Shown: positions 30,361 through 44,955 of the stretch, piece after piece | Position numbering within the stretch: position 1 is the stretch's first letter | Layout: the number at the start of each line of letters is the position of its first letter | Origin: Candidatus Altiarchaeota archaeon | GTDB taxonomy: Archaea; Altiarchaeota; Altiarchaeia; IMC4; SCGC-AAA252-I15 | Direction of reading: 5' to 3' | Length of the DNA: 64,000 nt | NCBI GenBank assembly: GCA_043800255.1 | Contig: JAZDNF010000006.1 | Coordinates: forward strand, 1 to 64,000 | Made by a program: the position numbers and the translations under genes | The notes under the pieces: model-generated | The model's input: only the letters and a program-made list of their open reading frames with translations | Databases searched by the model: none | What the model was told of the DNA's origin: nothing

Positions 30361-30855
30361 ATGTCAAACGCTGGCCCCGTTATTCTGTATTTGGATAATA
30401 CCGAGCTTTACGGCTCCTTGAAGAAAGCGATAAAACACTATCTAACTGGAGGTACTGGAGGTGTACGATCTAAGTTTCTGGATTATCTAAAGAAGTTGCA
30501 GGATTCGGGGGGTGTCGTTGTATTAACTTCTGAGCTCGCTGAATTTGAAGCTATTAGACGACTGCTCACGGATTTCCCAGAATTGACGTTTAACAAGGCT
30601 CTTGAAGCTTGGATGGAGTTGAGGGGAAGGTATGATATTCGTTCAATAGATCTCCGAGACTGTAAGACAATAAATCTTGACCTTAAATTCTTCCAGAAAA
30701 CAGGATTCGACTATAAAGATGGGATGCATTATTCAGTGGCAAAAAAATATGGGGCTTTTATTGTGACTGGAGATGGGAAATTTGGAGAAACGGCAGAGCA
30801 GGTATACAAGGGTAAAGTACTAAGAAGAGGGGACGTATATCAAAAATTCAAGTAA
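30361..30855 (+). CDS. PIN-domain (VapC-like) RNase
   Basis: LYLDNT, AEFE, KDGMHYSVA, IVTGD acidic tetrad pattern. Confidence 0.85.
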   Translation: MSNAGPVILYLDNTELYGSLKKAIKHYLTGGTGGVRSKFLDYLKKLQDSGGVVVLTSELAEFEAIRRLLTDFPELTFNKALEAWMELRGRYDIRSIDLRDCKTINLDLKFFQKTGFDYKDGMHYSVAKKYGAFIVTGDGKFGETAEQVYKGKVLRRGDVYQKFK

Positions 30856-31996: not shown

Positions 31997-32842
31997 TCAC
32001 TGTTTCTGTCCTCTTTTCCTGACTATTCTTTTCAGTTTTTCTGGAATTTGAAGGTAGTTTTCAGATGTTATTACGCTTCTTCCGCTCTCGTACTCTAGTT
32101 TTTTTCTTGCGTCGCCGGCTATGGTGCCCCCTCGTCTGGCCACTGTTTTGTTTTGGATAAATCCTCTTGCATCCCTTTTACGGGCTATCTCCGTCGTTGC
32201 CGCCTCTCCGAGCATGGTGAATATCAGCTCCAGGTCGGTCATATGGTCCCGCAGGTTCTCGCGCTTTAGGCCCTTGTATTTCAGGTATTGACTGGGGGTC
32301 ATGCCGAAGGTGGCGTCCGATATCTCAGCCGTCAATATGGCGAATTCTGTGTCTTGTTTAACTCCCCTCTTGTTCCATTCTCCGGTAAGTTCGTCTCTTA
32401 CGGCGATACCTCTCACTCTTTTCTCAATCCAGTCCTCAGAGTAGCCTTTTGCTTGGTAAATCCCTCGCATCCGTCCCATAGCCAGTTCAGGATTCCCTAT
32501 CTCCTGCACTCTCTCGTAGCCGACTTTCGCAAGCCATCTCTTGAAAGGTTCTGCTTTCTTGGAGGGGATAGATTGTATTATCCTGAACATAGACTCTGTG
32601 TTGGCGCAGTCTGTTAGGTATTTTTTGCCGTCTGGTGCGGACAGTTTCAGTTGTACCCAAATTGGGGACAACTGAAGTTGTGCGAATTCCCTCTCTTTGA
32701 CCTTCCCCCAATACTGGCGGGGTGTCGGGCTGTCAGTCAAAACCTGGACGACGTCCACGACCGAGAAATACCATTCCTTATCATGCCAGACCCTACGAAT
32801 CTGTTTGCCCTGAAAAACGACCAACGAATTATCCTCATCCAT
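31997..32842 (-). CDS. Bro-N domain protein (phage antirepressor-like)
   Basis: FQGKQIRRVW…WYFSVVDVV…PSKKAEPFKRWLA; NLRDHMTDLELIF. Confidence 0.9.
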   Translation of the reverse strand: MDEDNSLVVFQGKQIRRVWHDKEWYFSVVDVVQVLTDSPTPRQYWGKVKEREFAQLQLSPIWVQLKLSAPDGKKYLTDCANTESMFRIIQSIPSKKAEPFKRWLAKVGYERVQEIGNPELAMGRMRGIYQAKGYSEDWIEKRVRGIAVRDELTGEWNKRGVKQDTEFAILTAEISDATFGMTPSQYLKYKGLKRENLRDHMTDLELIFTMLGEAATTEIARKRDARGFIQNKTVARRGGTIAGDARKKLEYESGRSVITSENYLQIPEKLKRIVRKRGQKQ

Positions 32843-32884
32843 ACCAACCACAAACAACAATACATATTAACTCTAGAAAGCCCT

Positions 32885-32914: not shown

Positions 32915-33613
32915 TCATGCTCCCACCTCTACGATTTTAGCCCCCGTAATCCTCGAAAGTTGGTTCGCAAGAGTTTTATTCTTCACGTAAATCATTGGTG
33001 GGTACAGTTCTTCTGAGGATACTCCATCTATTGAAGATGGCCTACAAACAAATAGTAATGTGTCAATGTCTGAATTTCTGAATAGAGTCTTTGAAACGAT
33101 ATCCTTGTTTGAGATAAAAGAATAAAACCTTTTTAGTGTGGCTATTATGCAATCATAAAAGATGACACCCCATAATTGGTTATCCGAATCTTTTCCCCTC
33201 CGTTTAGAGTTGATATGTTTGATGCACCTATTTATTTTAGAGAGGGCTTCTTTTTCGTTTTTTGGCAGGTTCAATGGTAACGACGAACTATGAACGTTCC
33301 TCTTAAGAGACGTATTGATTGAAGTAATCTCAACATCTACTCCTTTGTCTTTAATTTCATAATCCGGGACTTTATTAGACTTGTTCTCTTGAATCCGAGT
33401 TAAATCTCCTAATGGACTTAGTACCTTCTTAACATAGCGTTCGAGTTGCGGCGTAACCACATTTGTTCTGATAAAATCTTGATACGAGATAATACCATTG
33501 CTCGACACATTCTTACCATCCATACAGGGCCCATAGTATATTTTCATCAGGCCTTCAATATCCTGTGGAGGGTCATAACTCGCCTTATCCATGATTCTCC
33601 TCAACAATCCCAA
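32915..33613 (-). CDS. Putative PD-(D/E)XK nuclease
   Basis: KVPDYEI…VDVEITSI motif; AT-rich; start may be ATG 33592. Confidence 0.55.
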   Translation of the reverse strand: MGLLRRIMDKASYDPPQDIEGLMKIYYGPCMDGKNVSSNGIISYQDFIRTNVVTPQLERYVKKVLSPLGDLTRIQENKSNKVPDYEIKDKGVDVEITSINTSLKRNVHSSSLPLNLPKNEKEALSKINRCIKHINSKRRGKDSDNQLWGVIFYDCIIATLKRFYSFISNKDIVSKTLFRNSDIDTLLFVCRPSSIDGVSSEELYPPMIYVKNKTLANQLSRITGAKIVEVGA

Positions 33614-33671: not shown

Positions 33672-34550
33672 TTATGTACTATCTGTTTGTTTTTGAGAAT
33701 TGATTTCATCGATCAACATTTTTTCGAATGAGAGGTGAAACTCTAATGTTCGGGAAAATGTTTTGTCCATCCAATCTAACGTTTTTACAGAAGTATACTC
33801 ATCACCTTTTCTCAGAAAAGGTTTATTCGGAATCCTATGACACCATGTTTTTTCAGCAGGATTGCCAGTAATTGAAAATATCGTTTCTGAATGAGAATGA
33901 AAAGACATTCGTTTTCTTCCATGAGCCACATAACGTCTAAGCTCATTTAGTTTGGGTGTACTGAGTATCTCGATTATGTCACCATACTCTTTTTGCGTCC
34001 GTGAATATTTTTGTAGTTCTTTTTCATAGTCCGTGACTGGCTTCTGAGGCGTAAAAATCCAGTTATAAGATTCTACCAGAAGGTACTCTTCGAAGGAGGG
34101 AGCTATCTGCGTTGTCCCTTTGTTTTTTAGTTGCTTAAATAGATTACCAAAACCAAATTCAGGGTCGTACTTCCTGCGGAGGGTTATCCTAAATAATTTT
34201 GCTAATGAATCTAAACTGCCGCGTAGGGATAAAATAAAAGCATCAAGTTCAAACTCCAGAAGAACGTGGAACTTGGATTTCTCAGTTATTTTTTCATCTG
34301 AAGAATATGCCATGGAGTAAACTGAATGCATCTTCTGAAAAAGAAAATAGTGAAAACATGCACTTTCAAGAGAATGTGAAAGGCCAGATATTAGTTCCTC
34401 GAATAGGTGTTTATCGTCTGCAAGGATGCTCTTCTCAAGTTCTTTATCTAAATGTTTACTTCTTTCGAAAAAATCACCGAATTTTCCATTAAAAAAAGAT
34501 AAAAACTCTTTCTCAGAAAAATCAAGATTCAATCCATTATCCTGTTCCAT
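33672..34550 (-). CDS. HEPN-domain (Cthe_2314-like) putative RNase
   Basis: ELDAFILSLRGSLDSLA helix and LNELRRYVAH (RxxxxH); start overlaps the R-M stop. Confidence 0.7.
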   Translation of the reverse strand: MEQDNGLNLDFSEKEFLSFFNGKFGDFFERSKHLDKELEKSILADDKHLFEELISGLSHSLESACFHYFLFQKMHSVYSMAYSSDEKITEKSKFHVLLEFELDAFILSLRGSLDSLAKLFRITLRRKYDPEFGFGNLFKQLKNKGTTQIAPSFEEYLLVESYNWIFTPQKPVTDYEKELQKYSRTQKEYGDIIEILSTPKLNELRRYVAHGRKRMSFHSHSETIFSITGNPAEKTWCHRIPNKPFLRKGDEYTSVKTLDWMDKTFSRTLEFHLSFEKMLIDEINSQKQTDST

Positions 34551-37506
34551 CTTCGACAATTTTTATTTCGTCTTCCGTTAGGCCATATAGCTTATACACG
34601 AGCGAGTTTATCTCATTATCTGTGGCCTCAATCTGCCGCTCCAAAACAGACCTCTCCTGAGGAGTTTTAACACCAGCCAAATGATTATGCAAACCCAACA
34701 TACGAGAAACCAAAGAAACAACATCATCATGCTGTTTCTTCTCAAGAGGATTTGAAAAGTCTATTCGTCTTATTGAGATTTTTGATATGCTATTCCAGAA
34801 ATATTCGTATATCCCTCCACTTTTTAATTTTCCTATGCTCTTGAATCTGTATGTTAAAAGTTTTGAATTCAACAAACCTAGTAAGTATAGCAGATCTTCT
34901 GGTTGATTGTTTTCGAATAATACAGTCGTATCTGTTAAGCCTATAAATTCATTAGCATAATCTATTGCAAAACGATTATATTTTGCAAGATATGGGCACA
35001 TTATTTTTTTTCTGTCATAATGTTCTTTATGGAGGGGCCATGTATACTTCCACCATTCACAGTCCCCACGTTTGTATGCTGCTCGTGCTTTTAATTCACT
35101 TGAATTTTCAAGGAGATGTTTTTGAACAGCATTGGGAAGATTATCAAATTTAATAACATCTTCTAAATATAACAAATAGTCTCCTCGATCTTTAATGAAG
35201 AATCGTTGGATATCTGAGTTTGATGCCCGGTTATAATAGTTTCCCTTTTTTACACCCCAACTAATTATCTTATCTGACGTTATTTTTCCAAAAACATTAT
35301 TCCTACCCGTTTGCATACCTTGACCAATAATAAGGATTTGCCCTAATTTCTCTCCCTCGTTATCGATTTTCTCGTTCAATAATGCGTTGTCCTCTGAAAC
35401 GAAAGACCATGGCTCTGAAGTTAAGTTAGATTGTCCTATTCTTATCTTTTGAAAAATAGAAAAATTCTGAATTTGTCTACTTAAATTTGATGTTAGTAGT
35501 TCATCTCCTAACAATTTGTATACATCGATCTTTCCATTTTTCGAGCTTGATTGTAGGTTGATTATACAGGTTGTAATACCTACTCGGGGGAATATAGGGT
35601 AATTCTGAAAATCAATTATCTCAGAAATTCTTGAATTTTCAAGGATATAACCCCTCAATTTATCTGCTTTGTATGCTTCAAGGAATGCTCTTGAAACAAT
35701 AAAGCTGATATAATCTTGAGACAGCTGTAGTGCTTTTCCAATAAAGTAGAAAAGTATATCCGTTTTATCATTGTAGATTTCAGGATAACCCTTTTTTATG
35801 GCTTTCAATCTAGGGTCTTTTTTACCCCACGTATCATCAATGTTCAAATACGGCGGATTCCCTATCACTGCATCAAACTTGAAGGGGAATTCTTTTTTCC
35901 AGTTGAATGTGTTTATCCGGAGCGTTTCTTCTTCGGTGAATATTTTGGTCTGGCCTGTGTAGAAGTCGGGGCCGATGAGGCTGTTCCCGCATTTGATGTT
36001 ATTGTCCAGGTCGGGCAGTACGCGGCCTCCGAGGCGTTTCTGGGGTTCCCTGTGCTCGTCCTCCAAGACTTTCAAAAGTAGATTAAGCTTTGCGACCTCG
36101 ACGGCCTGCTCGTCAATATCAACACCGTATATGTTGTTCAAGAGTATCCGTTTCTTCTCGCCCAATGTCAGATACCATTGTCCGCCTTTGCCCTGATAGA
36201 CGGCATCCTTGTTTTTGCCGGGATCGTGACTTACGTACCAGTCCCTATGATAATCTAAAAGCTTCTGATACGCTCCAATCAAAAACGAACCTGAACCGCA
36301 CGCTGGGTCGAGAACTTTCAGTTTCTCAACCTGCTTGGGAGATTTGCCCTCAATAAGCCTTCCGACAGTATTTTGAACGATATAGTCTACGATGTATTTT
36401 GGCGTGTAATAGACGCCGCCGGCCTTCTTCACCTCTGGCTTTTCCTCGACTTTGGCGCGATGGCCTTCGGTAAGGCGTATTACTTTCCCTAGGAACTGCT
36501 CGTAGACGTTGCCGAGGATGTCAGCCCCGATGACTGAGAACTCATAAGGGCAATTCGGGTAATACAGGTTCTTGATCATGTCCCTGAAGACTTTATCATC
36601 AATCTTCAGGTTCGGGCAGACGTAATCCGGGAAAGACGTCCGTCCCTTTTCCTCTTTGAAATAGAATATCCCAGAATTGTATTTCTCATCAGCTTTTTCG
36701 AAAAGCCTCAGCAAATGGGTGTAAATGTCCTCCTTCTCCGATATCTCCTGAAGCTGTTCGTATGGTTCTATCCCCCGATCCTCGCATATTCTCAAGAATA
36801 TTATCCGGTCTATGGTCTTCTGGACTGCATAATTTATCTCACGAACAGAGTATTTTGGATTCCTCAATGCGATGTTCTTTGCCAGCTCATCCCTCCACCT
36901 CTCAATCTCCTTCAGGAATTCGTCATCCACCTCGGATGTGCCTTTTTTGCCCTTGACAGATTCAGCATACTGGTCGAACAAGCCGTGCTCTATCGAAGTC
37001 TTGGCGAAAATATTTGCTATCTCATCCCAACGGGTCGCATACTCGTCATAGCGTACGTACAATATCCTCCCAACACTGGCAGAGTCGTTTGGCAAGGGTT
37101 TCTTACGGCAATCATATACTGCAAACTCTTCGAAATCGGTTAGAACAGCGAGAGGCAGTTTCGCGCTCCAGGAATATCTCCGAATCTGATATGCCGGGCT
37201 GACATCGCCCTTGATGTTCACAGAAGGCTTTTTAGTCTCGAGGAAAAATTTTCGTGTCCCGCCGATACGGAAAGAATAATCCGGAGCCTTGATGTTCTGA
37301 CCTATTCTAATCGCATCCTCGTGGATCACATCCTTGTAGGCTTCAGCGATTCCCTTAACATTACGAACATCCCAACCCAATTCCTCAAAAAAGGGATTGA
37401 TGAATTCCTCCCTCAATTGAGTTTCATTATAAGCAGCGCTCAAATATGATTTCTTGTTCCACTCAAATCTCTCAACCAACTCAACAATCTTCTCCGGCGC
37501 AGCCAT
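34537..37506 (-). CDS. Type IIG (Eco57I-like) restriction-modification enzyme
   Basis: N-terminal APDY…LETK nuclease, GVYYTPKYIV, VLDPACGSGSFL, VIGNPPY (N6-adenine MTase), TaqI-C-like TRD, LYGLTEDEI C-terminus. Confidence 0.95.
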   Translation of the reverse strand: MAAPEKIVELVERFEWNKKSYLSAAYNETQLREEFINPFFEELGWDVRNVKGIAEAYKDVIHEDAIRIGQNIKAPDYSFRIGGTRKFFLETKKPSVNIKGDVSPAYQIRRYSWSAKLPLAVLTDFEEFAVYDCRKKPLPNDSASVGRILYVRYDEYATRWDEIANIFAKTSIEHGLFDQYAESVKGKKGTSEVDDEFLKEIERWRDELAKNIALRNPKYSVREINYAVQKTIDRIIFLRICEDRGIEPYEQLQEISEKEDIYTHLLRLFEKADEKYNSGIFYFKEEKGRTSFPDYVCPNLKIDDKVFRDMIKNLYYPNCPYEFSVIGADILGNVYEQFLGKVIRLTEGHRAKVEEKPEVKKAGGVYYTPKYIVDYIVQNTVGRLIEGKSPKQVEKLKVLDPACGSGSFLIGAYQKLLDYHRDWYVSHDPGKNKDAVYQGKGGQWYLTLGEKKRILLNNIYGVDIDEQAVEVAKLNLLLKVLEDEHREPQKRLGGRVLPDLDNNIKCGNSLIGPDFYTGQTKIFTEEETLRINTFNWKKEFPFKFDAVIGNPPYLNIDDTWGKKDPRLKAIKKGYPEIYNDKTDILFYFIGKALQLSQDYISFIVSRAFLEAYKADKLRGYILENSRISEIIDFQNYPIFPRVGITTCIINLQSSSKNGKIDVYKLLGDELLTSNLSRQIQNFSIFQKIRIGQSNLTSEPWSFVSEDNALLNEKIDNEGEKLGQILIIGQGMQTGRNNVFGKITSDKIISWGVKKGNYYNRASNSDIQRFFIKDRGDYLLYLEDVIKFDNLPNAVQKHLLENSSELKARAAYKRGDCEWWKYTWPLHKEHYDRKKIMCPYLAKYNRFAIDYANEFIGLTDTTVLFENNQPEDLLYLLGLLNSKLLTYRFKSIGKLKSGGIYEYFWNSISKISIRRIDFSNPLEKKQHDDVVSLVSRMLGLHNHLAGVKTPQERSVLERQIEATDNEINSLVYKLYGLTEDEIKIVEDGTG

Positions 37507-37581: not shown

Positions 37582-38799
37582 TTATTCGTCGTCTTTGATT
37601 TTGCTGAGGGTTAAGCGTGTGGTTTCTTCGGGGGTGGCGTATTTTCTGAGGATTTCCTCCAGTTCCTGGGGGAATTCGTGCTTTTCAAGTTTTCCGGCCA
37701 GTCCCATTATGTTTAGGGTGCTTACGTCATCCCAGAAGCCGTCTTTTTTCAGTATCTCCTCTAGTTTCTGCCTTTCCTTTGTGTTCGCGGCGGGAAATTT
37801 GAGAGCCTCTTTCACTGCAACGCGCACCCGCTTATCGGAGCCGTAGATGTACTCTACCCCCTCCTTTTTAGCGTATGCTACTAAGGCTTCAGCAAGCTGA
37901 GCATACTCCTCCTCAAACCAGGCCTTGAACTCCTGCTCCCTGACCTTCAGTTCGGCGTACTTGTTGGCTAAGACGACCCCCTCCTCAGCCATGTATTTGT
38001 TTAACGGCAGCTGCCGGGTTTTAACTTGATGTTTCTTGATTTTGCAATACTCTTGGAAGGCACACCAGGCACATAGACCGGATTCTATGGCGGGGAAATT
38101 GTCGTCGGTGGTCGCCTGTTCTATGCTTTGTATGATACCTAAAAATTCTGTTTTAAGGTCTTCCAGGTGCTGGCTCGTCCGTTTGGATCTGAGTTCCTTG
38201 TCGAATACTAGGTAATGCCATACTAAGTCAACTTCCTCTACATCGTCCCACATCTGGCGAATGCCTATCTCGTAGAGGGCTAGTTGTTGATCCCTGTTCT
38301 TCTTATCCTGGGTTGGAAGATGTTGGCTTGTCTTGTAATCGTGTATTTCATAAATTCCATCACCGACAGTATCCAGGCGGTCTATGTAGCCGATAAAATT
38401 ATACTGGTTATCGCCTAGCAGGTCTACGGTAACCATCATCTCAGTTTCGAGGGTCTTCCCTTTCTCAAAGGGTTTATAGCGGTTATAGTAGTCCACCAGA
38501 CACTTTTCGCCGACAATCCGGTAATGCTCTTGTGTCAAACCCTCCTTGTTGACGACGACGTCAGGGTTTATGTATCTCACCCAGGAGTCGTTATAACCTC
38601 CTAAAAGTTCGTCAACAGAAGCGATTTTCCCGTGATTGCGATCTATATAGAACTTCTCCAAAGCCTCATGAACCCGCTTGCCCATGAAAGCCTCAATACC
38701 CTCAAAAGCCTCGACGTCCAGCTTATCGATATACTGAAACTTAAATGCCAGAGGACAATTCTCGAAACATTGTAGACGAGAATACGAGTACCTCATCAT
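37582..38799 (-). CDS. PD-(D/E)XK RecB/AddB/Cas4-like Fe-S exonuclease
   Basis: YSYSRLQCFENCP, GYIDRLD, HDYKTS, QLALY, CAWCAFQEYC. Confidence 0.9.
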   Translation of the reverse strand: MMRYSYSRLQCFENCPLAFKFQYIDKLDVEAFEGIEAFMGKRVHEALEKFYIDRNHGKIASVDELLGGYNDSWVRYINPDVVVNKEGLTQEHYRIVGEKCLVDYYNRYKPFEKGKTLETEMMVTVDLLGDNQYNFIGYIDRLDTVGDGIYEIHDYKTSQHLPTQDKKNRDQQLALYEIGIRQMWDDVEEVDLVWHYLVFDKELRSKRTSQHLEDLKTEFLGIIQSIEQATTDDNFPAIESGLCAWCAFQEYCKIKKHQVKTRQLPLNKYMAEEGVVLANKYAELKVREQEFKAWFEEEYAQLAEALVAYAKKEGVEYIYGSDKRVRVAVKEALKFPAANTKERQKLEEILKKDGFWDDVSTLNIMGLAGKLEKHEFPQELEEILRKYATPEETTRLTLSKIKDDE

Positions 38800-38971
38800 A
38801 TAGAATAGTGGATTATTTAGTTAAAGGTGGGGGGAGCATTGGAAAAATAGTCTAACCAATACAAGCCCCTATGTTTAGATTAGTTGATGCATTGTGAACA
38901 GGTGATGCATAGTGTATCAACTAAGCCCTAGTTAGGATATCAATCAGGTGATATTGGTTCCTGTCTTAGGG

Positions 38972-38995
38972 AGTGATAAGAATCAGCTACTTCAC
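38972..38995. repeat. 24-bp direct repeat left of the four-gene cassette
   Basis: AGTGATAAGAATCAGCTACTTCAC; 22/24 identical to 41663-41686. Confidence 0.7.
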
Positions 38996-39069
38996 AGGCG
39001 CTTGGAATGGGAGAAGTGGGCTTGGGAGCGTGATGGTGTGCCTGCTCGCGTACCCGTCCAATGAATCAT

Positions 39070-40176
39070 CTATTTGTTTTCAGCTACTTTTATCCAGCGG
39101 TCCAGGTAGTCAATTTTTATGACTTGTTGAAGTTTTTTGTTTTTGACCAGCACTTGTTTTAAATCTCCGATCAGGTCTGCTTTTTTATTGTATTCCTTAA
39201 CCTCTTTTGAGCGTGCGGCAAGGTAATGGTTTATCTGGGCTTCTCTTTCGTCTTGATTATTGCAGTATCCGCAGTCGCATTTCATAAGCTCTGGTGCATT
39301 CTTTTTTATGTAGTCAAGTTCTGAGCCTGAAAACCTATTCTTCAATCCTGGGACGTAGAAGCGCGAGTATTGTCTCTGGCCGAAGCCGGGAGATGCGCGT
39401 CTTAGTCTGTCTCCTGAGTCTGCACCGTGAACAATGGCGTGTATGTTGACGTTTGGTAATAAGAGGTCGAAGAAACTGCTATATGTTGAGATTATCGGCT
39501 TACCTGTCTGGGATAACCCGTTTAGTATGTCTTTGTATCCGCTTAGGTATTCCGTTGATGCGGAGTAGACATCGAATTCTATTGCGGAAAAGCAGAAGCC
39601 GTCGGCGTCTGATTTGGCGTAGGCATTGCATATTTGGGCTGCTGCTCTTTTATTGATGAGTAAGTCTATGGTCAAAGCCAAGCCAGCATATACTTTTTTC
39701 TTAGGATATAGTTCTTTTGCGTCTTTTATGAAATTGAGGTTATGCTGTTGTGCTGGGCAGTTTTCTTCGTCTATGAATCCATAAGGTGCTATGAGAAATT
39801 CCGGGTCCACTGTTTTAGTTACCTCATCTAGGGGGTCTTCGGATAGTGCCTCGTTAATCCTGTTCTCCTGGAAGGTAAGGAATTTTCTAACAAAATCTTT
39901 TCGTCGTTTCTTATCTGATGGTATCTGCCGTATTTCATCCTCCACATCCAGCTTTGACACGTACCTAGCATGTGACCTCTTGTCCGAAACAAGATCGTAT
40001 AAGTGGGGGTCTACGACGAAAGACTTGCCGGTTTTTAGAAGAATCTGGGAGAAAGCATTGTTGTAATACTCCAGGTTTGGGCTGTCAATTACGTAGCCGT
40101 CAAAGTGATCCTTTACTTTTTCTGTGAACTTTCCTTCTTGAGCATTGTATCTGACGTAAAACTTCATTTTTGCCAC
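39070..40176 (-). CDS. TIM-barrel-like protein with TGT-type CxCxxC…H zinc site
   Basis: Alternating beta/alpha pattern; FVVDPHLY, IAPY, VHGADSGD, RFYVPGL, KCDCGYC…NHYL. Confidence 0.6.
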   Translation of the reverse strand: MAKMKFYVRYNAQEGKFTEKVKDHFDGYVIDSPNLEYYNNAFSQILLKTGKSFVVDPHLYDLVSDKRSHARYVSKLDVEDEIRQIPSDKKRRKDFVRKFLTFQENRINEALSEDPLDEVTKTVDPEFLIAPYGFIDEENCPAQQHNLNFIKDAKELYPKKKVYAGLALTIDLLINKRAAAQICNAYAKSDADGFCFSAIEFDVYSASTEYLSGYKDILNGLSQTGKPIISTYSSFFDLLLPNVNIHAIVHGADSGDRLRRASPGFGQRQYSRFYVPGLKNRFSGSELDYIKKNAPELMKCDCGYCNNQDEREAQINHYLAARSKEVKEYNKKADLIGDLKQVLVKNKKLQQVIKIDYLDRWIKVAENK

Positions 40177-40540
40177 GCTTCAAGGGTGACGATAGCCTTG
40201 ACTTGCTAATTACTTTACATTCGCCTTTTTTTATACTCAATATTCCGACTCCAAGCTCCCTGAAGGTGCCTACGTCGAGTCTGGCAGCCAGATTATGGGG
40301 TATTGCAACGTAATTGTAATGGCAGTATGATGTGTTCAAAGCTGCCTGCCTAAGTGCCCTACGCCAGTCTGAGACCTTAACTTCAACGGAGGTTAAACGC
40401 CCCGTAGACTTCCGTTTGAAGACCAGATCCATGCTTTTCCGGTAGCTTTTCTCCGGATGGGTTCTGACCTCCTCAAATGGCTCAAAACCGTCATCGAATG
40501 TGTCCAGAATAGGACCATAGAGGGAAAGCTCAGAGGCCAT
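40100..40540 (-). CDS. Small PD-(D/E)XK nuclease (MmcB/sce7726-like)
   Basis: EEV…MDLV…SVEVKVSDWRRALRQA…YVAIP…GVGIL. Confidence 0.75.
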   Translation of the reverse strand: MASELSLYGPILDTFDDGFEPFEEVRTHPEKSYRKSMDLVFKRKSTGRLTSVEVKVSDWRRALRQAALNTSYCHYNYVAIPHNLAARLDVGTFRELGVGILSIKKGECKVISKSRLSSPLKRGKNEVLRQIQCSRRKVHRKSKGSL

Positions 40541-40573
40541 TATCTTTAATTAATTGAGCCCCTAATTATTAAT

Positions 40574-41119
40574 ATGACCGTACAGAAGAATTTGAAGCCA
40601 ATCTTACTATTGTTCCTGCTCTCGAAGCTGAGCGAAAAGGGTGAGCGTAAGGTAGATAATCTGCGTTCCATGAAGCTCCTATTTCTGATACAAAAAGAGG
40701 GTGAAAAGCAGGTAGAAAAAGGATTCAACTTCGTACCATACAAATACGGCCCATATAGTGAAGACTACTTCGATACCTCAATATACCTGTCAGAGAAAGG
40801 TTTAATCGACGTGGAGACCGATGTTTCAGGAGACATCAAAGCAGTTAAAATCAAACCCGAGGGGAGTGAAAAAGTCGCAACCCTTCAAACGGCATATTCA
40901 GACATAGCATCGAGCGTCTCAAAGATAGTATCCGAATACGCAAACCTAAGCACCGACCTTCTGCTATTGTACATCTACTCGAAATATGCGGACTTCACCA
41001 TACGTTCCGAGATAAAGGACAAGATACTATCCATAGCAAAGGCCAACTTTAGCATATTACAGTCTAAGGCAAAACAATTCAACTTTTCCGAAGGAGAACT
41101 CAATTTAGTGGGGATTTAA
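40574..41119 (+). CDS. SocA/DUF4065 (Panacea)/YwgA-like winged-helix protein
   Basis: MKLLFLIQKE…FVPYKYGPYSED; LLLYIYSKY. Confidence 0.75.
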   Translation: MTVQKNLKPILLLFLLSKLSEKGERKVDNLRSMKLLFLIQKEGEKQVEKGFNFVPYKYGPYSEDYFDTSIYLSEKGLIDVETDVSGDIKAVKIKPEGSEKVATLQTAYSDIASSVSKIVSEYANLSTDLLLLYIYSKYADFTIRSEIKDKILSIAKANFSILQSKAKQFNFSEGELNLVGI

Positions 41120-41554
41120 GTGCTACGCATAATCGCGGATACAAACATCATACTATCAGGGTTATTCTTCGATAAAAACCCCGAGAAACTGTTACTGCTA
41201 GCCATAAACGGCGACCTAAAACTCATAATCCCCGAACTTGTCATAACAGAGGTAAACGAAAAAATAGAGGGAAAATTCTCAAAACAAGAAAACCTGGGGG
41301 CAGCAAGGGACTTTTGGTTCGTACTCCAAAAAGCATTCCGCGAAACAAAAGAGGACATACTCTCCGATAAGACTACTCCCATAGACTGTCCTGACTCCGA
41401 TGACACTAAGATTCTGGAATATGCAACCAAGATTAAGCCAGATTACGTCATATCAGGAAACCAACACGTACTCGACATCAAAGACCCTCCCTGTCAGATA
41501 ACCAAACTAAGAGCCTTTTTAGAAAAAGAATTTCCAGGAATCCTGGAGGATTAA
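41120..41554 (+). CDS. PIN-domain toxin (PIN_3-like)
   Basis: IIADTNIILSG, ITEV, DSDDTKILEYA, VISGN. Confidence 0.85.
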   Translation: MLRIIADTNIILSGLFFDKNPEKLLLLAINGDLKLIIPELVITEVNEKIEGKFSKQENLGAARDFWFVLQKAFRETKEDILSDKTTPIDCPDSDDTKILEYATKIKPDYVISGNQHVLDIKDPPCQITKLRAFLEKEFPGILED

Positions 41555-41662
41555 TCCTTCCAGAGACCTAAAAAAATGCACGTTGATAACATGGTGTGTT
41601 AGCCAATACAAGGGGTTATCAAAATCAGCAGAGACAAAGGGAATTTGGTGTTTGAGTCAAGC

Positions 41663-41686
41663 AGTGATGAGAATCAGCTACTCCAC
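41663..41686. repeat. 24-bp direct repeat right of the four-gene cassette
   Basis: AGTGATGAGAATCAGCTACTCCAC. Confidence 0.7.
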
Positions 41687-41697
41687 GGCTATGGTCG

Positions 41698-42384
41698 TTA
41701 CTTGAGTCTGTTGGTGAGGGTTTGTCCGGGGCCTGCTTTTCTCTGGTTTTCTCTGAATCTGATGCGGCCCTGAAGTGAGAGGATGTCCTTGTAAGCGTAG
41801 ACTTCATCTGTTGCAGAGACTATGTCGTCTTTGGCGCGGATTCCGCCGCTCTTGGAGATGATAGGCCCTCTGGCCCGCATCACGCCGGATTTGGACTCTA
41901 TGTCCCCGTTGGCTGTGATGCTCCCATCCCAGGCGATGAGACTGTCGCCTGATGTTATGGAACCTCCGGCTGCTATGTCGCCCTTGAATGAGTTTATGGC
42001 CCCGCTGTGAGAGTATATGTCTCCGCCGGCCCGTATCGGGCCATTGTCAGCGTTTATGTCCCTCTCAGCCCGTATGCTGCCGACCGCGTCTATGCCGCCG
42101 TCAGCTTCTATCCTGCTCTTCGCCCTGAAATCAGGATTCGATATTATGAGCCTGCCTCCGGTCTTCAGGCGCTCAATCTGGGAGCAGGACTCGGCCAGGA
42201 TGAAATTCTCATCCCCGCCCCTGACGGCAACCTGATTTCCCACCAGGACTGTGTAATCAATGCCTTCGAGAGTGACCTTCCCATTGGAAACAGGGCATTG
42301 CCTGCCTCCGACCGTTAACTCAGCCAGAGGTTTGATGTCCTCAAGCCCGCCCCTCTCTCCCGCACAGTAGACCTTCTGGACCAT
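41698..42384 (-). CDS. Bactofilin/FapA(DUF342)-like beta-helix protein
   Basis: IxAxGxI repeats; paralog of 23685-24257. Confidence 0.7.
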   Translation of the reverse strand: MVQKVYCAGERGGLEDIKPLAELTVGGRQCPVSNGKVTLEGIDYTVLVGNQVAVRGGDENFILAESCSQIERLKTGGRLIISNPDFRAKSRIEADGGIDAVGSIRAERDINADNGPIRAGGDIYSHSGAINSFKGDIAAGGSITSGDSLIAWDGSITANGDIESKSGVMRARGPIISKSGGIRAKDDIVSATDEVYAYKDILSLQGRIRFRENQRKAGPGQTLTNRLK

Positions 42385-42470
42385 AGTCTAAATTAAAGAA
42401 TAATATACGCATCCCCTGAATAAAAGAGGCTTCCGCAAGACTTTTAACGAGGGGCATCTAATAGTATTGA

Positions 42471-43613
42471 ATGCTTTCTAGGGTTTTGGTTGCGGGTTTG
42501 AACTGCCGTCCTGTGGCAGTCTCAGCCAAAAAGTTCATACCAGAAGTTTATGTCGTAGACTACTTCGGCGACGTTGACCTGAAACGGGCTGCCGACGGCG
42601 TCTACTCCATAGGCAAAGAGTACTCGCTGGACAGGCTGCTCAAGCGAACGAAGAAGGTCATAGGGAGGGTGAAACCTGAGGGAGTGCTGCTGACCTCAGA
42701 ATTAGGATGCAACCCAGACACCGTCAGAGAGGTGGGATACTCCTGCAAGATAATTGGGAACGGCTTCGAGCAGGTCAACTCAGTCAGAGAGTGGAAAGGC
42801 TTCTTCCACACGCTTGACAAACTGGGCATAAAACATCCGAAGACGATTCTGGTGGACAAGATAATGAACGTCGAATGGGCGTGCAAGACTATAGGGTTCC
42901 CGCTGGTGACGAAGCCATTGCACGGCTCCTCAGGACAGGGAGTCAGGCTCATCCACTCCCTGAAGGAGGCCCTTACAGAGTTCGACAAATACAAGAGGAT
43001 ACTCATCCAAGAGTACGTCAGAGGCGTGAACGCCAGCGTCTCCGTGATTTCAACAGGAGCTGATGCGACTGCAGTCTCCTTGAACGAGCAGCTCCTAGGC
43101 AAGAATGAATTCGGACAGGAGAACCAGTTCGGATACTGCGGGAACATAGTGCCATTGGAAAGCAGACTCGAGAGGAAGGCCAGAGAAGACGCCGAGACAA
43201 TATGCAGGGAGTTCAAGCTGGTCGGGAGCGTCGGAATCGACATGGTCCTGGCAGACCAGCCGTATGTGATAGAAGTGAACCCCAGATTCCACGACACGCT
43301 CGAATGCATCGAAAGGGCATACGACATTAACCTCGTCAAAGCCCACATTGAAGCAATCGGCGGGATCCTGCCAACGGTAGGGAAATCTGGAAAAACCTAC
43401 GCGAAGAGCATACTTTTTGCGGACGGCAGGCTGAAGATAGCAGGCAACCTGGAGAACGTTGAGGGCGCGGCAGACATAATGAGAGAGGGAGCGATCGTCG
43501 AAAGAGGCAACCCGGTGTGCAGCGCCATAGCAGAGGGGAAGGACAGGGACGCAGCGCTTTCAAGCCTGAACGACAAGATAATCACATTAAAAAAATGCTT
43601 CAGAAGGATTTAA
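42471..43613 (+). CDS. ATP-grasp domain protein (archaeal MJ0776-like)
   Basis: VDYFGDVD, KPLHGSSGQG, QEYVRG, IEVNPRF. Confidence 0.85.
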   Translation: MLSRVLVAGLNCRPVAVSAKKFIPEVYVVDYFGDVDLKRAADGVYSIGKEYSLDRLLKRTKKVIGRVKPEGVLLTSELGCNPDTVREVGYSCKIIGNGFEQVNSVREWKGFFHTLDKLGIKHPKTILVDKIMNVEWACKTIGFPLVTKPLHGSSGQGVRLIHSLKEALTEFDKYKRILIQEYVRGVNASVSVISTGADATAVSLNEQLLGKNEFGQENQFGYCGNIVPLESRLERKAREDAETICREFKLVGSVGIDMVLADQPYVIEVNPRFHDTLECIERAYDINLVKAHIEAIGGILPTVGKSGKTYAKSILFADGRLKIAGNLENVEGAADIMREGAIVERGNPVCSAIAEGKDRDAALSSLNDKIITLKKCFRRI

Positions 43614-43614
43614 C

Positions 43615-44955
43615 ATGCTTCTGCCGATAATAGCGTACCTTATGCTGCTGCTTGGCATAGGCATCTACTACAGCAGGATAAGAAGCCTTGACGAGTTCAT
43701 AATCGCCGGCAAAAACCTGGGCTTCTACGTTCTGGTAACTTCAATAGCTGCCACATTCTACGGCGCTGCGGCAGTGTTGGGCGGGGCGGAGCTGGCATAC
43801 TACTTCGGATTGGGAGCATTGTGGTTCATGGTACCATTCTACATAGGGAACCTGCTGGTCATACCATTCCTGGACAAGATCGAGAAATCCGGGGCTAAGA
43901 CCCTGCCGGATTTCCTGGGAAAATACTATGACAGCAGGATCGTAGTCCTGTCCTCCCTGCTGCTTGTAGTTTTATGCCTGGTGCCTTCCGAGATTCTGGC
44001 CATAGGGAAAATAATGAATGTTCTGATGCCCTACTCCACGGAAGGCTGGATGATAGCAATCACAGCGGTCGTGATACTGTACACCCTGCTCGGCGGGATG
44101 CGGTCGGTAGCGCACTCTGACATGATACAGTTCACTATCATGGCATTGTCTTTCGCGATTCTGCTGCCGTACGCGCTCAAATACAGCCCGGATTTCCTAT
44201 CCAACGTCCCGGGCGAAAACCTCGACCCTCTGGCATATTTCAGGATGCTCCCCCAGGACGCGATAAGATGGACCATACTATTGCTTTTCCTGCCGATAAC
44301 AAGCTCGCCCCTCTACATGAGGTTCTTCGCATCCCTGAAGAAAGTCGACAGGAAGAAGGCGCTGGCCGGCACAGTAATGATATATTTTGCGATTGACATG
44401 ATACTGCTGTCCAGTGGCATGATAGCCTACGCCAACTCAGAAAAGCTGGGAATAACAGAGGAGAACGCCGACATATCGCTGCTGATACTGGGCCTGAATG
44501 CGCTGCCGAAAGGCCTAACGGCGGTGTTCATAGTAGGTCTGCTGGCTGTCATGATGAGCACCGCCGATTCCTGGCTGCACGCTGGCGCCTCAAGCCTCGC
44601 CTATGACATACTGAAGAGAAGACAAGCCAATAGTGAAAGCAGCCTCATAATGGCATCCAGGCTTTTCATAATAGTGCTGGGAGTGGGAAGCCTGCTGATA
44701 GCCCTCTACTTTTTCGACATAATCGAAGCCCTGAGCGCGCTGCTGACAGTATGGATTTCAGGAGTCCTCGTGCCGACGATGGCAGCCCTGCTGTCTGTCA
44801 GAATGTCAAGCAGGGCGGCAGCCCTTTCGATGATATTAGGTACGTCAGCCTCGGTCCTTTGGACGGTAACGCCCATAATGCCGGTGGACCCGCTCTTTGT
44901 CGGCATTTTTTTCTCGCTCGCCGGCGCATTACTTGGAAGAAAACAGCGTATTTAA
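43615..44955 (+). CDS. Sodium:solute symporter (SSS) family
   Basis: Many TM helices; FIIAGK, YTLLGGMRSVAHSD, LAVMMSTADS. Confidence 0.9.
   Translation: MLLPIIAYLMLLLGIGIYYSRIRSLDEFIIAGKNLGFYVLVTSIAATFYGAAAVLGGAELAYYFGLGALWFMVPFYIGNLLVIPFLDKIEKSGAKTLPDFLGKYYDSRIVVLSSLLLVVLCLVPSEILAIGKIMNVLMPYSTEGWMIAITAVVILYTLLGGMRSVAHSDMIQFTIMALSFAILLPYALKYSPDFLSNVPGENLDPLAYFRMLPQDAIRWTILLLFLPITSSPLYMRFFASLKKVDRKKALAGTVMIYFAIDMILLSSGMIAYANSEKLGITEENADISLLILGLNALPKGLTAVFIVGLLAVMMSTADSWLHAGASSLAYDILKRRQANSESSLIMASRLFIIVLGVGSLLIALYFFDIIEALSALLTVWISGVLVPTMAALLSVRMSSRAAALSMILGTSASVLWTVTPIMPVDPLFVGIFFSLAGALLGRKQRI

Follow-up and report, generated by a model that had tools for sequence, protein, structure and literature searches.

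A horizontally mobile gene cassette that joins a Panacea-type protein to a small nuclease and a zinc barrel of the tRNA-guanine transglycosylase superfamily in an Altiarchaeota genome

The window analysed here is a stretch of 64,000 nucleotides (nt) from a Candidatus Altiarchaeota archaeon (positions 1 to 64,000 of contig JAZDNF010000006.1, our contig C10, in a genome assembly of 1.75 Mb, 17 contigs and 93% completeness), and at 39070-41554 it carries a cassette of four genes that encode a triosephosphate isomerase (TIM) barrel protein with a zinc motif and the predicted fold of the tRNA-guanine transglycosylases (TGT), a small nuclease, a Panacea-type protein (PanA) and a PIN-domain RNase. 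We suggest that the cassette works as a single module, spread by horizontal transfer and of the toxin-antitoxin or abortive-infection type, in which a barrel-nuclease effector is held by PanA, a proposal to which we give an even chance of being right. The evidence favours a design with a constant core consisting of (i) PanA, (ii) an sce7726-like nuclease and (iii) the TGT-derived zinc barrel, to which a variable extra toxin is added beside PanA: PIN in the window and a membrane protein of three predicted helices in Arthrobacter, while Haloarcula lacks such a toxin. Because this gene set recurs on archaeal and bacterial plasmids, the cassette is probably an undescribed immune or addiction module.

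In the cassette, the nuclease and barrel genes on the minus strand diverge from the PanA and PIN genes on the plus strand:

39070-40167 (start ATG at 40167; 365 amino acids, aa) or 39070-40176 (start GTG; 368 aa), minus strand, TGT-superfamily zinc TIM-barrel protein
40100-40540, minus strand, small PD-(D/E)XK protein of the restriction endonuclease (REase) fold, 146 aa
40541-40573, no strand, AT-rich divergent spacer, 33 bp
40574-41119, plus strand, PanA of the Panacea / SocA / DUF4065 type, 181 aa
41120-41554, plus strand, PIN-domain RNase, 144 aa

The ATG at 40167 is likely the true start of the barrel gene, as it is the start common to all homologues. The nuclease and barrel genes overlap by 68-77 nt (68 nt with the ATG start), and the TAA of the PanA gene directly abuts the GTG of the PIN gene. 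A pair of A/T boxes lies in the spacer, each preceding the opposite start codon by about 26 nt, and from the known geometry of archaeal promoters we infer two crossed leaderless promoters; a scan for sigma-70 promoters and terminators returned no more than chance, its model not being applicable to an archaeon.

The four-gene divergent layout, with PIN and PanA on one strand and the nuclease and the barrel on the other, is found in all five independent close loci, i.e. the window, L002 (the locus of genome G046, which is also matched by the fragment L013), L003, L012 and L014, and the spacer always measures 27-39 nt. Identity to the window across these loci is 82-41% for the barrel; in L002, L003, L012 and L014, respectively, it is 83, 39, 39 and 52% for the nuclease, 88, 47, 49 and 53% for PanA and 81, 57, 51 and 58% for PIN, and all four proteins diverge in step. 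Within the phylum, the PanA subfamily (E <1e-90) is present only in two of 61 genomes, both of which have the barrel gene. An earlier note on this DNA, made from the letters alone, had taken the two gene pairs for one unit, and their joint recurrence in all five close loci speaks for this.

More distant versions keep the core and vary the remainder. On the Haloarcula plasmids pNG400 and pHsi540 and on the JP-L23 plasmid, a SocA/DUF4065 gene, a gene for 162-164 aa and a gene for a barrel of 418-427 aa lie overlapping on the same strand, and a PIN gene is absent; the small protein of pNG400 aligns with the window nuclease, and the small genes of pHsi540 and JP-L23 are matched to it by size and position only. 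In Haloarcula sinaiiensis pHsi540, a SIR2-family gene (L029 4875-6362) directly follows the operon of PanA, nuclease and barrel on the same strand and could be a further effector of that version. In Arthrobacter pSI-1, the order is PanA (hhalign probability 98.7%, E 1.6e-16), a 200-aa protein, nuclease and barrel. Three hydrophobic stretches in the 200-aa protein are read as membrane helices; it was also considered as a PIN or PanA relative, and this was rejected as hhalign shows no relation to either. On plasmid p6_CACC119 of Priestia megaterium, a 677-aa fusion of a Ser/Thr kinase to a C-terminal barrel (L016 5277-7310) is met by a 223-aa nuclease-domain gene that converges on the fusion gene and overlaps it. 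The next gene on this plasmid encodes a large DUF4379/CapR zinc-ribbon protein.

In total, the barrel is found with the nuclease in no fewer than 8 of the 10 loci inspected, as well as in two fusions, and with PanA in 9 of the 10. Plasmids, and neighbouring genes for SIR2 or N6-methylases, speak for a defence or mobile context, and in every locus the nuclease gene overlaps that of the barrel. A programmed frameshift joining the nuclease to the barrel was considered and set aside, because with overlaps of 1-77 nt across loci translational coupling is the plainer explanation. The PIN-based abortive arm of the earlier note is present in five of five close loci and absent from the Haloarcula and Arthrobacter versions, and PIN is not a constant part of the cassette.

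The 368-aa barrel protein has no match in Pfam, PADLOC or NCBIfam, and a scan of 34 family members against Pfam and PADLOC gave chance matches only; nor could any of the 62 aligned members be assigned meaningfully to a Pfam or PADLOC family. A word-indexed search with the barrel retrieved only five relatives, and an exhaustive search retrieved 290 cluster representatives at E <=0.001, mostly 400-450 aa in length and 21-30% identical. Look-alike clusters in the ESM Atlas come mainly from bacteria (Actinomycetota, Planctomycetota) with some from Methanobacteriota, and include fusions of Ser/Thr kinases to the barrel in Bacillota; a tblastn search of plasmids with the Arthrobacter barrel recovered only itself.

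An AlphaFold model of the barrel, based on a 62-row alignment, has a predicted local distance difference test score (pLDDT) of 95.1 and a predicted template modelling score of 0.93. When this model was compared with all representative structures, five chains of the TGT superfamily ranked first (ArcTGT 19.8, bacterial TGT 19.0, DpdA 17.2, QTRT2 16.7 and Cap10 13.8), with ordinary TIM barrels scoring at most 13.4; Foldseek agrees with this ranking, less sharply. A fold search of BFVD gave weak and mixed matches with a best E of 7e-4, among them a few phage entries named "queuine tRNA-ribosyltransferase" at E 5e-3 or weaker. The TGT model PF01702 reached its gathering score in none of 62 members, with one member at E 0.13 and no match for the window protein, and a search of the barrel against PDB chains gave no match with 5 sequences and, with 62 sequences, only E 0.16 to the zinc region of ArcTGT.

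The motif CDCGYC-x11-H, with which the earlier note had the protein end, is present at residues 300-317 (C300, C302, C305 and H317) and is followed by 51 further residues. Among 5 close sequences the zinc residues do not vary, and across 62 their conservation is 90% or more; a CxCxxC...H motif is found in 133 of 152 family members of at least 300 aa and aligns with the zinc motif of ArcTGT. A profile of the barrel family picks up the zinc region of ArcTGTs in six of 61 genomes at E 1e-5 to 7e-4. Three of these six open reading frames (ORFs) were scanned with Pfam and all three are ArcTGT, and all six are mutually 60-65% identical. The hhalign comparison of the barrel family with those ArcTGTs gives 86% probability and E 5e-6 over residues 163-375. 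By its modelled fold, the barrel belongs to the TGT/DpdA superfamily.

TGTs and DpdA share three invariant active-site aspartates, which act as general acid/base, in base recognition and as nucleophile (the part of PMC10164549 examined). A pairing of the barrel with these enzymes by topology and motif would place (i) IDPxxY opposite TDSGSY, with the aspartate kept as D56, (ii) FLIAP opposite FLDIP, with the aspartate replaced by isoleucine (I129), and (iii) IVHG opposite LFDS, with the nucleophile replaced by histidine (H250). At least two of the three aspartates are without an evident counterpart; the barrel is TGT-like in fold and zinc site, and canonical chemistry is doubtful.

The 146-aa protein has a PD-(D/E)XK fold, with an alpha-beta-beta-beta-alpha-beta core and a D...(D/E)xK motif, and D38, E53, K55 and Q65 are invariant. 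Its REase-fold matches, MspJI and AspBHI among them, are generic only, and a word-based search retrieved only two proteins. The NCBIfam sce7726 model (NF033832, 70-bit cut-off) does not match the window nuclease; it detects two of nine nuclease relatives below the cut-off (Arthrobacter, 30.8 bits, 2.5e-7; P0019, 21.7 bits, 1.5e-4), and the control P4 cII scores 151 bits, 2.5e-44. On these scores, the nuclease is a distant relative of the sce7726 family and not a member of it. In two of 154 barrel-family members, P0019 and P0025, the nuclease domain is fused N-terminally to the barrel (BLASTP 2e-17 and 6e-17; hmmsearch about 1e-43).

PanA matches PADLOC PDC-M19A (1.6e-17), the C-terminal part of DarG (2.8e-7; NCBIfam DarG 2e-5) and phrog_14939 (1.4e-16), and has no match in Pfam, PF13274 included, at E up to 0.1. 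It is 28% identical to a Haloarcula protein annotated as SocA, which itself matches PF13274 at 2.9e-5 and 25.4 bits against a cut-off of 25.7. The PIN protein matches Pfam PIN_3 (PF13470; 1.3e-12, 48.9 bits against a cut-off of 27) and TIGR00305 (7.3e-8), and D7, E44 and D92/D95 are invariant. The identities proposed in the earlier note have held: the TGT-like zinc TIM barrel by its model and structural rank, the PD-(D/E)XK nuclease of the sce7726 / P4 cII kind by its fold and the sub-threshold sce7726 matches of its relatives, and the PIN assignment by a PIN_3 match above the cut-off; the SocA/Panacea-like identity is probable from the PDC-M19A and DarG matches and the Haloarcula SocA alignment.

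In a predicted complex, PanA scored with nuclease and barrel reached 0.69, as compared to 0.00 for the best of three controls; this mark is reached by 116 of 157 solved complexes and by 2 of 215 mismatched pairs. At least 85% of the contacts are common to the three runs, the partner pLDDT is at least 79, and the confident contacts are all from PanA (residues 3-10, 63-87 and 100-108) to the barrel (residues 12-16, 37-48, 67-71, 110-117 and 311). When an unrelated protein takes the place of the barrel, the score drops to 0.00. We know of no solved PanA-TGT complex, so that the score is unlikely to reflect a known structure. As a prediction, the modelling supports binding of PanA to the TGT-like barrel.

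We suggest that the nuclease and the barrel would act as one effector. In this scheme, the barrel, a TGT scaffold with a zinc site and without a full catalytic triad, would bind or flip guanine or a base of the 7-deazaguanine type in DNA or tRNA, and this binding would direct or license cleavage by the nuclease. PanA would hold both this effector and PIN in check; infection, or loss of the element, would release them, with nucleic-acid cleavage and growth arrest as the outcome. Because the host has genes for ArcTGT and QueC, 7-deazaguanine bases and archaeosine-type tRNA are plausibly available to such an effector.

Several points weigh against this proposal. In hhalign alignments (default, low-mact and global), no family-conserved aspartate stands opposite the aspartates of TDSG, FLDIP or LFDSA in ArcTGT, and the alignment is confident over the second half only, so that catalytic residues are not reliably mapped; as the catalytic aspartates are not matched, the barrel may serve as a scaffold or sensor, catalyse some other reaction or have no activity. 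The complex prediction departed from its calibration in using three chains and small alignments, of 5 and 7 rows, and as only PanA was scored it has no bearing on contacts between PanA and PIN or between the nuclease and the barrel. Toxicity of the barrel-nuclease pair is assumed from the presence of PanA, and no antitoxin would be required if the nuclease recognised modified foreign DNA alone. Gene context covers 10 loci of the 290 representatives (E <=0.001), and in Priestia, for which the annotation alone was consulted, PanA is not annotated nearby. Finally, the fourth acidic position of PIN is an asparagine (N114) in the window and in L002 and an aspartate in L003, L012 and L014.

Other arrangements of the same parts have to be weighed. 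In the examined part of a preprint of October 2026 (10.64898/2026.10.19.760177), PF14350 (P4 beta) is described as a TGT-related barrel of "TIM-B systems", in which its partners are diverse effectors and a REase of the P4 cII type, and a role as negative regulator is proposed for it. By analogy, the cassette barrel could be a constitutive brake that keeps the nuclease (and PIN) off by means of a nucleobase product or the modification of a partner, with infection breaking the brake; we regard this as possible without being probable. The architecture, with a variable effector, a TGT-related barrel and an sce7726-kind REase, parallels that of P4 gop-beta-cII, two of nine members of the nuclease family have sub-threshold sce7726 matches, and the nuclease and barrel genes of Priestia are convergent and overlapping, an arrangement similar to that of P4, where cII converges on beta. 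However, the PF14350 model is blind to the barrel family, the cassette would have two brakes (PanA and the barrel), which in Haloarcula would serve a single effector, and the predicted binding of PanA to the barrel itself suits a guarded toxin better than a guarded antitoxin. Alternatively, two modules that function independently may be travelling side by side, PanA with PIN as an ordinary toxin-antitoxin pair and the nuclease with the TGT-like barrel as a separate one. The abutting PanA and PIN genes recall a classical type II pair, many toxins are known as partners of PanA (PMC8832971, in the part examined), and Priestia has the nuclease and the barrel without an annotated PanA. We consider this quite unlikely: PanA remains beside the nuclease and the barrel in loci that lack PIN (three in Haloarcula) or have a membrane protein in its place (Arthrobacter), the divergent spacer of 27-39 nt is the same in five of five close loci, and the predicted contact is between PanA and the barrel.

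Two further alternatives give the barrel a part in restriction. Type IV enzymes such as MspJI and AspBHI consist of a nuclease fused to a base-reading domain, and the nuclease-barrel fusions resemble this layout, with MspJI and AspBHI being found among the generic REase-fold matches. The barrel, with its retained TGT/DpdA fold and zinc site, might, as the earlier note had it, read or excise 7-deazaguanine in viral DNA, the nuclease cutting the DNA thus marked; viruses do modify their own DNA with DpdA-type enzymes, according to the parts of PMC10516641 and PMC10484667 examined. A system of this type would be harmless to an unmodified host, which would make PanA needless, and viral contigs scanned with P0010 and P0017 contained no relatives of either; we hold it to be very unlikely. 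It would be more surprising still if the barrel inserted deazaguanine in host DNA as a self mark while the nuclease restricted unmarked DNA, as in a Dpd-like restriction-modification system. The host has QueC and hence the preQ0 precursor, and restriction-modification enzymes are frequent neighbours; yet neither a DpdB nor a DpdC partner is present among cassette or island proteins, the aspartate triad of TGT and DpdA (PMC10164549, in the part examined) is not evident in the barrel, and an antitoxin-type partner binding a modifying enzyme is not expected.

Within the proposal of a PanA-held barrel-nuclease effector, a more specific version, which is at present unlikely, is that the barrel is a transglycosylase turned sensor, which has lost its aspartates, flips and reads 7-deazaguanine in viral DNA or archaeosine/queuosine in host tRNA, and hands the site to the nuclease, with PanA clamping it until infection. 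If this were true, the cassette would encode the first immune effector aimed at deazaguanine marks, and the barrel would connect, as a missing link, the TGTs of housekeeping metabolism with the TIM-B regulators of phage P4, which have no zinc site.

The cassette combines traits of several known systems. With P4 gop-beta-cII it shares a TGT-related TIM barrel, an sce7726-kind REase and a variable toxic effector, which is Gop with two transmembrane segments in P4 and PIN or a protein with three predicted transmembrane segments in the cassette; both are found on mobile elements, both have a toxin-antitoxin-like logic, and in some versions of each the nuclease and barrel genes converge and overlap. 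Rst_gop_beta_cll is a name that we take to denote the same P4 gop-beta-cII system. The differences are equally clear. P4 beta is without a zinc site, whereas the cassette barrel keeps the CxCxxC...H motif, and by profile the cassette barrel is nearer to ArcTGT (86%) than to Beta_protein (0.2% with a 20-sequence Beta_protein alignment, and 0.3% with P4 beta). PF14350 matched none of 62 barrel-family members and none of 61 genomes, that of the window included; 14 control genomes also gave no match. The cassette nuclease is a minimal core of 146 aa; P4 cII has 264 aa and is 118 residues longer, its REase core carrying helical extensions and a HeH domain according to the examined part of the preprint (10.64898/2026.10.19.760177). 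Lastly, PanA, as a constant member and a predicted binder of the barrel, sets the cassette apart from P4 gop-beta-cII.

As compared to TGT and DpdA (PF01702; 1iq8, 3unt, 7ui4), the barrel is without PUA, C1 or C2 domains and its three invariant aspartates are not evident, and its partners are a nuclease and PanA instead of DpdB/DpdC or queuosine genes; the families of the Dpd system (the ParB-like ATPase DpdB, DpdC and the restriction genes) were found in none of the cassette or island proteins. Like the PanA-PanT systems (PMC8832971, in the part examined), the cassette has the gene of a Panacea-type protein immediately before that of a toxin, in a setting of promiscuous pairing and mobility. 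In the part of that source examined, the list of PanA partners is without the pair of nuclease and TGT-like barrel found here, and Dataset S1 (Kurata et al. 2022), as far as examined, gives the Haloarcula pNG400 PanA, WP_049938427.1, as "no_PanT"; the contact predicted for PanA in the cassette is a 368-aa enzyme-like barrel. A further precedent for the barrel is Cap10 of type IV CBASS (9ntn; 10.1101/2025.04.06.647259, in the part examined), in which the TGT fold has likewise been recruited to immunity and remodelled for a non-tRNA substrate. The literature searched, to which the supplements of the TIM-B preprint did not belong, contained no paper joining PanA or DUF4065 with a transglycosylase-like barrel. 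The word "undescribed", as used of the system in the earlier note, thus has to be narrowed: related TIM-B barrels with effectors and a REase are described in 10.64898/2026.10.19.760177, and the barrel family and its link to PanA are absent from the part of that preprint examined.

The barrel represents an unannotated protein family, with 290 representatives lacking a Pfam, PADLOC or NCBIfam model, and forms a new branch of the transglycosylase superfamily; archaea and bacteria alike have mobile conflict modules into which it was recruited along with a nuclease. PanA would gain a new and unusually large partner. The three-gene system is suited to testing what TGT-derived barrels do in immunity, a question opened recently by Cap10 and the TIM-B proposal, and if the barrel reads or edits deazaguanines, it bears on the arms race over 7-deazaguanine modification of DNA.

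The mobility of the cassette rests on its patchy distribution, the barrel gene being present in two of 61 genomes of the phylum, and on different insertion sites, its neighbours differing between G000 and G046; it does not rest on the direct repeats by which the earlier note had judged it. These repeats are part of a larger element:

38954-38995, plus strand, left direct repeat, partial diverged copy of the 3' end of a ~110-nt element
41645-41686, plus strand, right direct repeat, last 42 nt of the ~110-nt element
41583-41688, plus strand, ~110-nt non-coding element, an imperfect palindrome with a 65-nt tail, at the junction of low-GC island and core

The earlier description of two gene pairs that diverge from a 33-bp AT-rich spacer and are enclosed by direct repeats identical at 22 of 24 positions was accurate, and the repeats are beyond chance. 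The two 42-nt copies are 76% identical, with the core of 22/24 at 38972-38995 and 41663-41686. A 23-nt repeat pattern has two matches in the window, a number reached in 0 of 100 shuffles, and at up to 3 mismatches these two are the only matches in the 1.75-Mb genome; the Smith-Waterman score of the repeats is 39, against a null maximum of at most 30 in 20 shuffles, and there is no third copy between 28 and 45 kb. A hairpin at 38880-38924 lies just upstream of the left repeat, and a partial copy of the element is assigned to 38880-38995.

When 41560-43700 was used as a DNA query on 21 genomes of the taxonomic family, 10 matched, the own genome included, and the element proper was matched in seven (G033, G034, G035, G037, G041, G047 and G051) at 74-100% identity. 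The copies elsewhere lie at unrelated intergenic sites, sometimes two or three per genome; the own genome has one full copy, exactly at the right edge of the island, and the 42-nt partial copy. Comparable repeats do not flank the cassette in L003, L012 or L014, and the 23-nt pattern is in no other cassette locus. The repeats thus derive from an element that is specific to the lineage and dispersed in it, and do not generally belong to the cassette: they are real, as the earlier note had it, and a weak sign of mobility. The element has no relevant Rfam match, and no compensatory pairs or covariation were found among 5 copies; it could be an integration target, a miniature inverted-repeat transposable element or a small RNA. 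The bracket of repeats around the cassette would fit an insertion into the end of the element.

The cassette lies at the right end of an island at 30.1-41.7 kb, in which the GC content is 0.35-0.47 as compared to 0.52-0.55 on both sides, with a step at about 41.7 kb. The island further contains:

30361-30855, weak PIN-like ORF
31997-32860, Bro-N protein
32915-33613 and 33672-34559, two ORFs without a family match
34537-37506, type IIG restriction-methylase (PADLOC 6e-211)
37582-38799, Cas4-like PD-(D/E)XK protein of 405 aa (PDDEXK_1 4e-29)

No integrase was found in the cassette, or in a Pfam scan of five ORFs of the island with a length of 120 aa or more, and the window contains no tRNA. The type IIG enzyme was considered as a part of the unit and rejected: the enzymes of the window and of L014 are 28% identical and the barrels 51%, which points to defence-island company. 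Type IIG or N6-adenine methylase genes adjoin the cassette in 4 of 10 loci (L014 2650-5433, L003 7097-8275, L030 1-2471 and window 34537-37506), and this may reflect either the company of a defence island or a functional link. Beyond the right edge of the island, the core genome resumes with a gene at 41698-42384 for a 228-aa glycine-rich repeat protein, for which the sole Pfam signal is a faint one to the FapA beta-solenoid (E 0.09).

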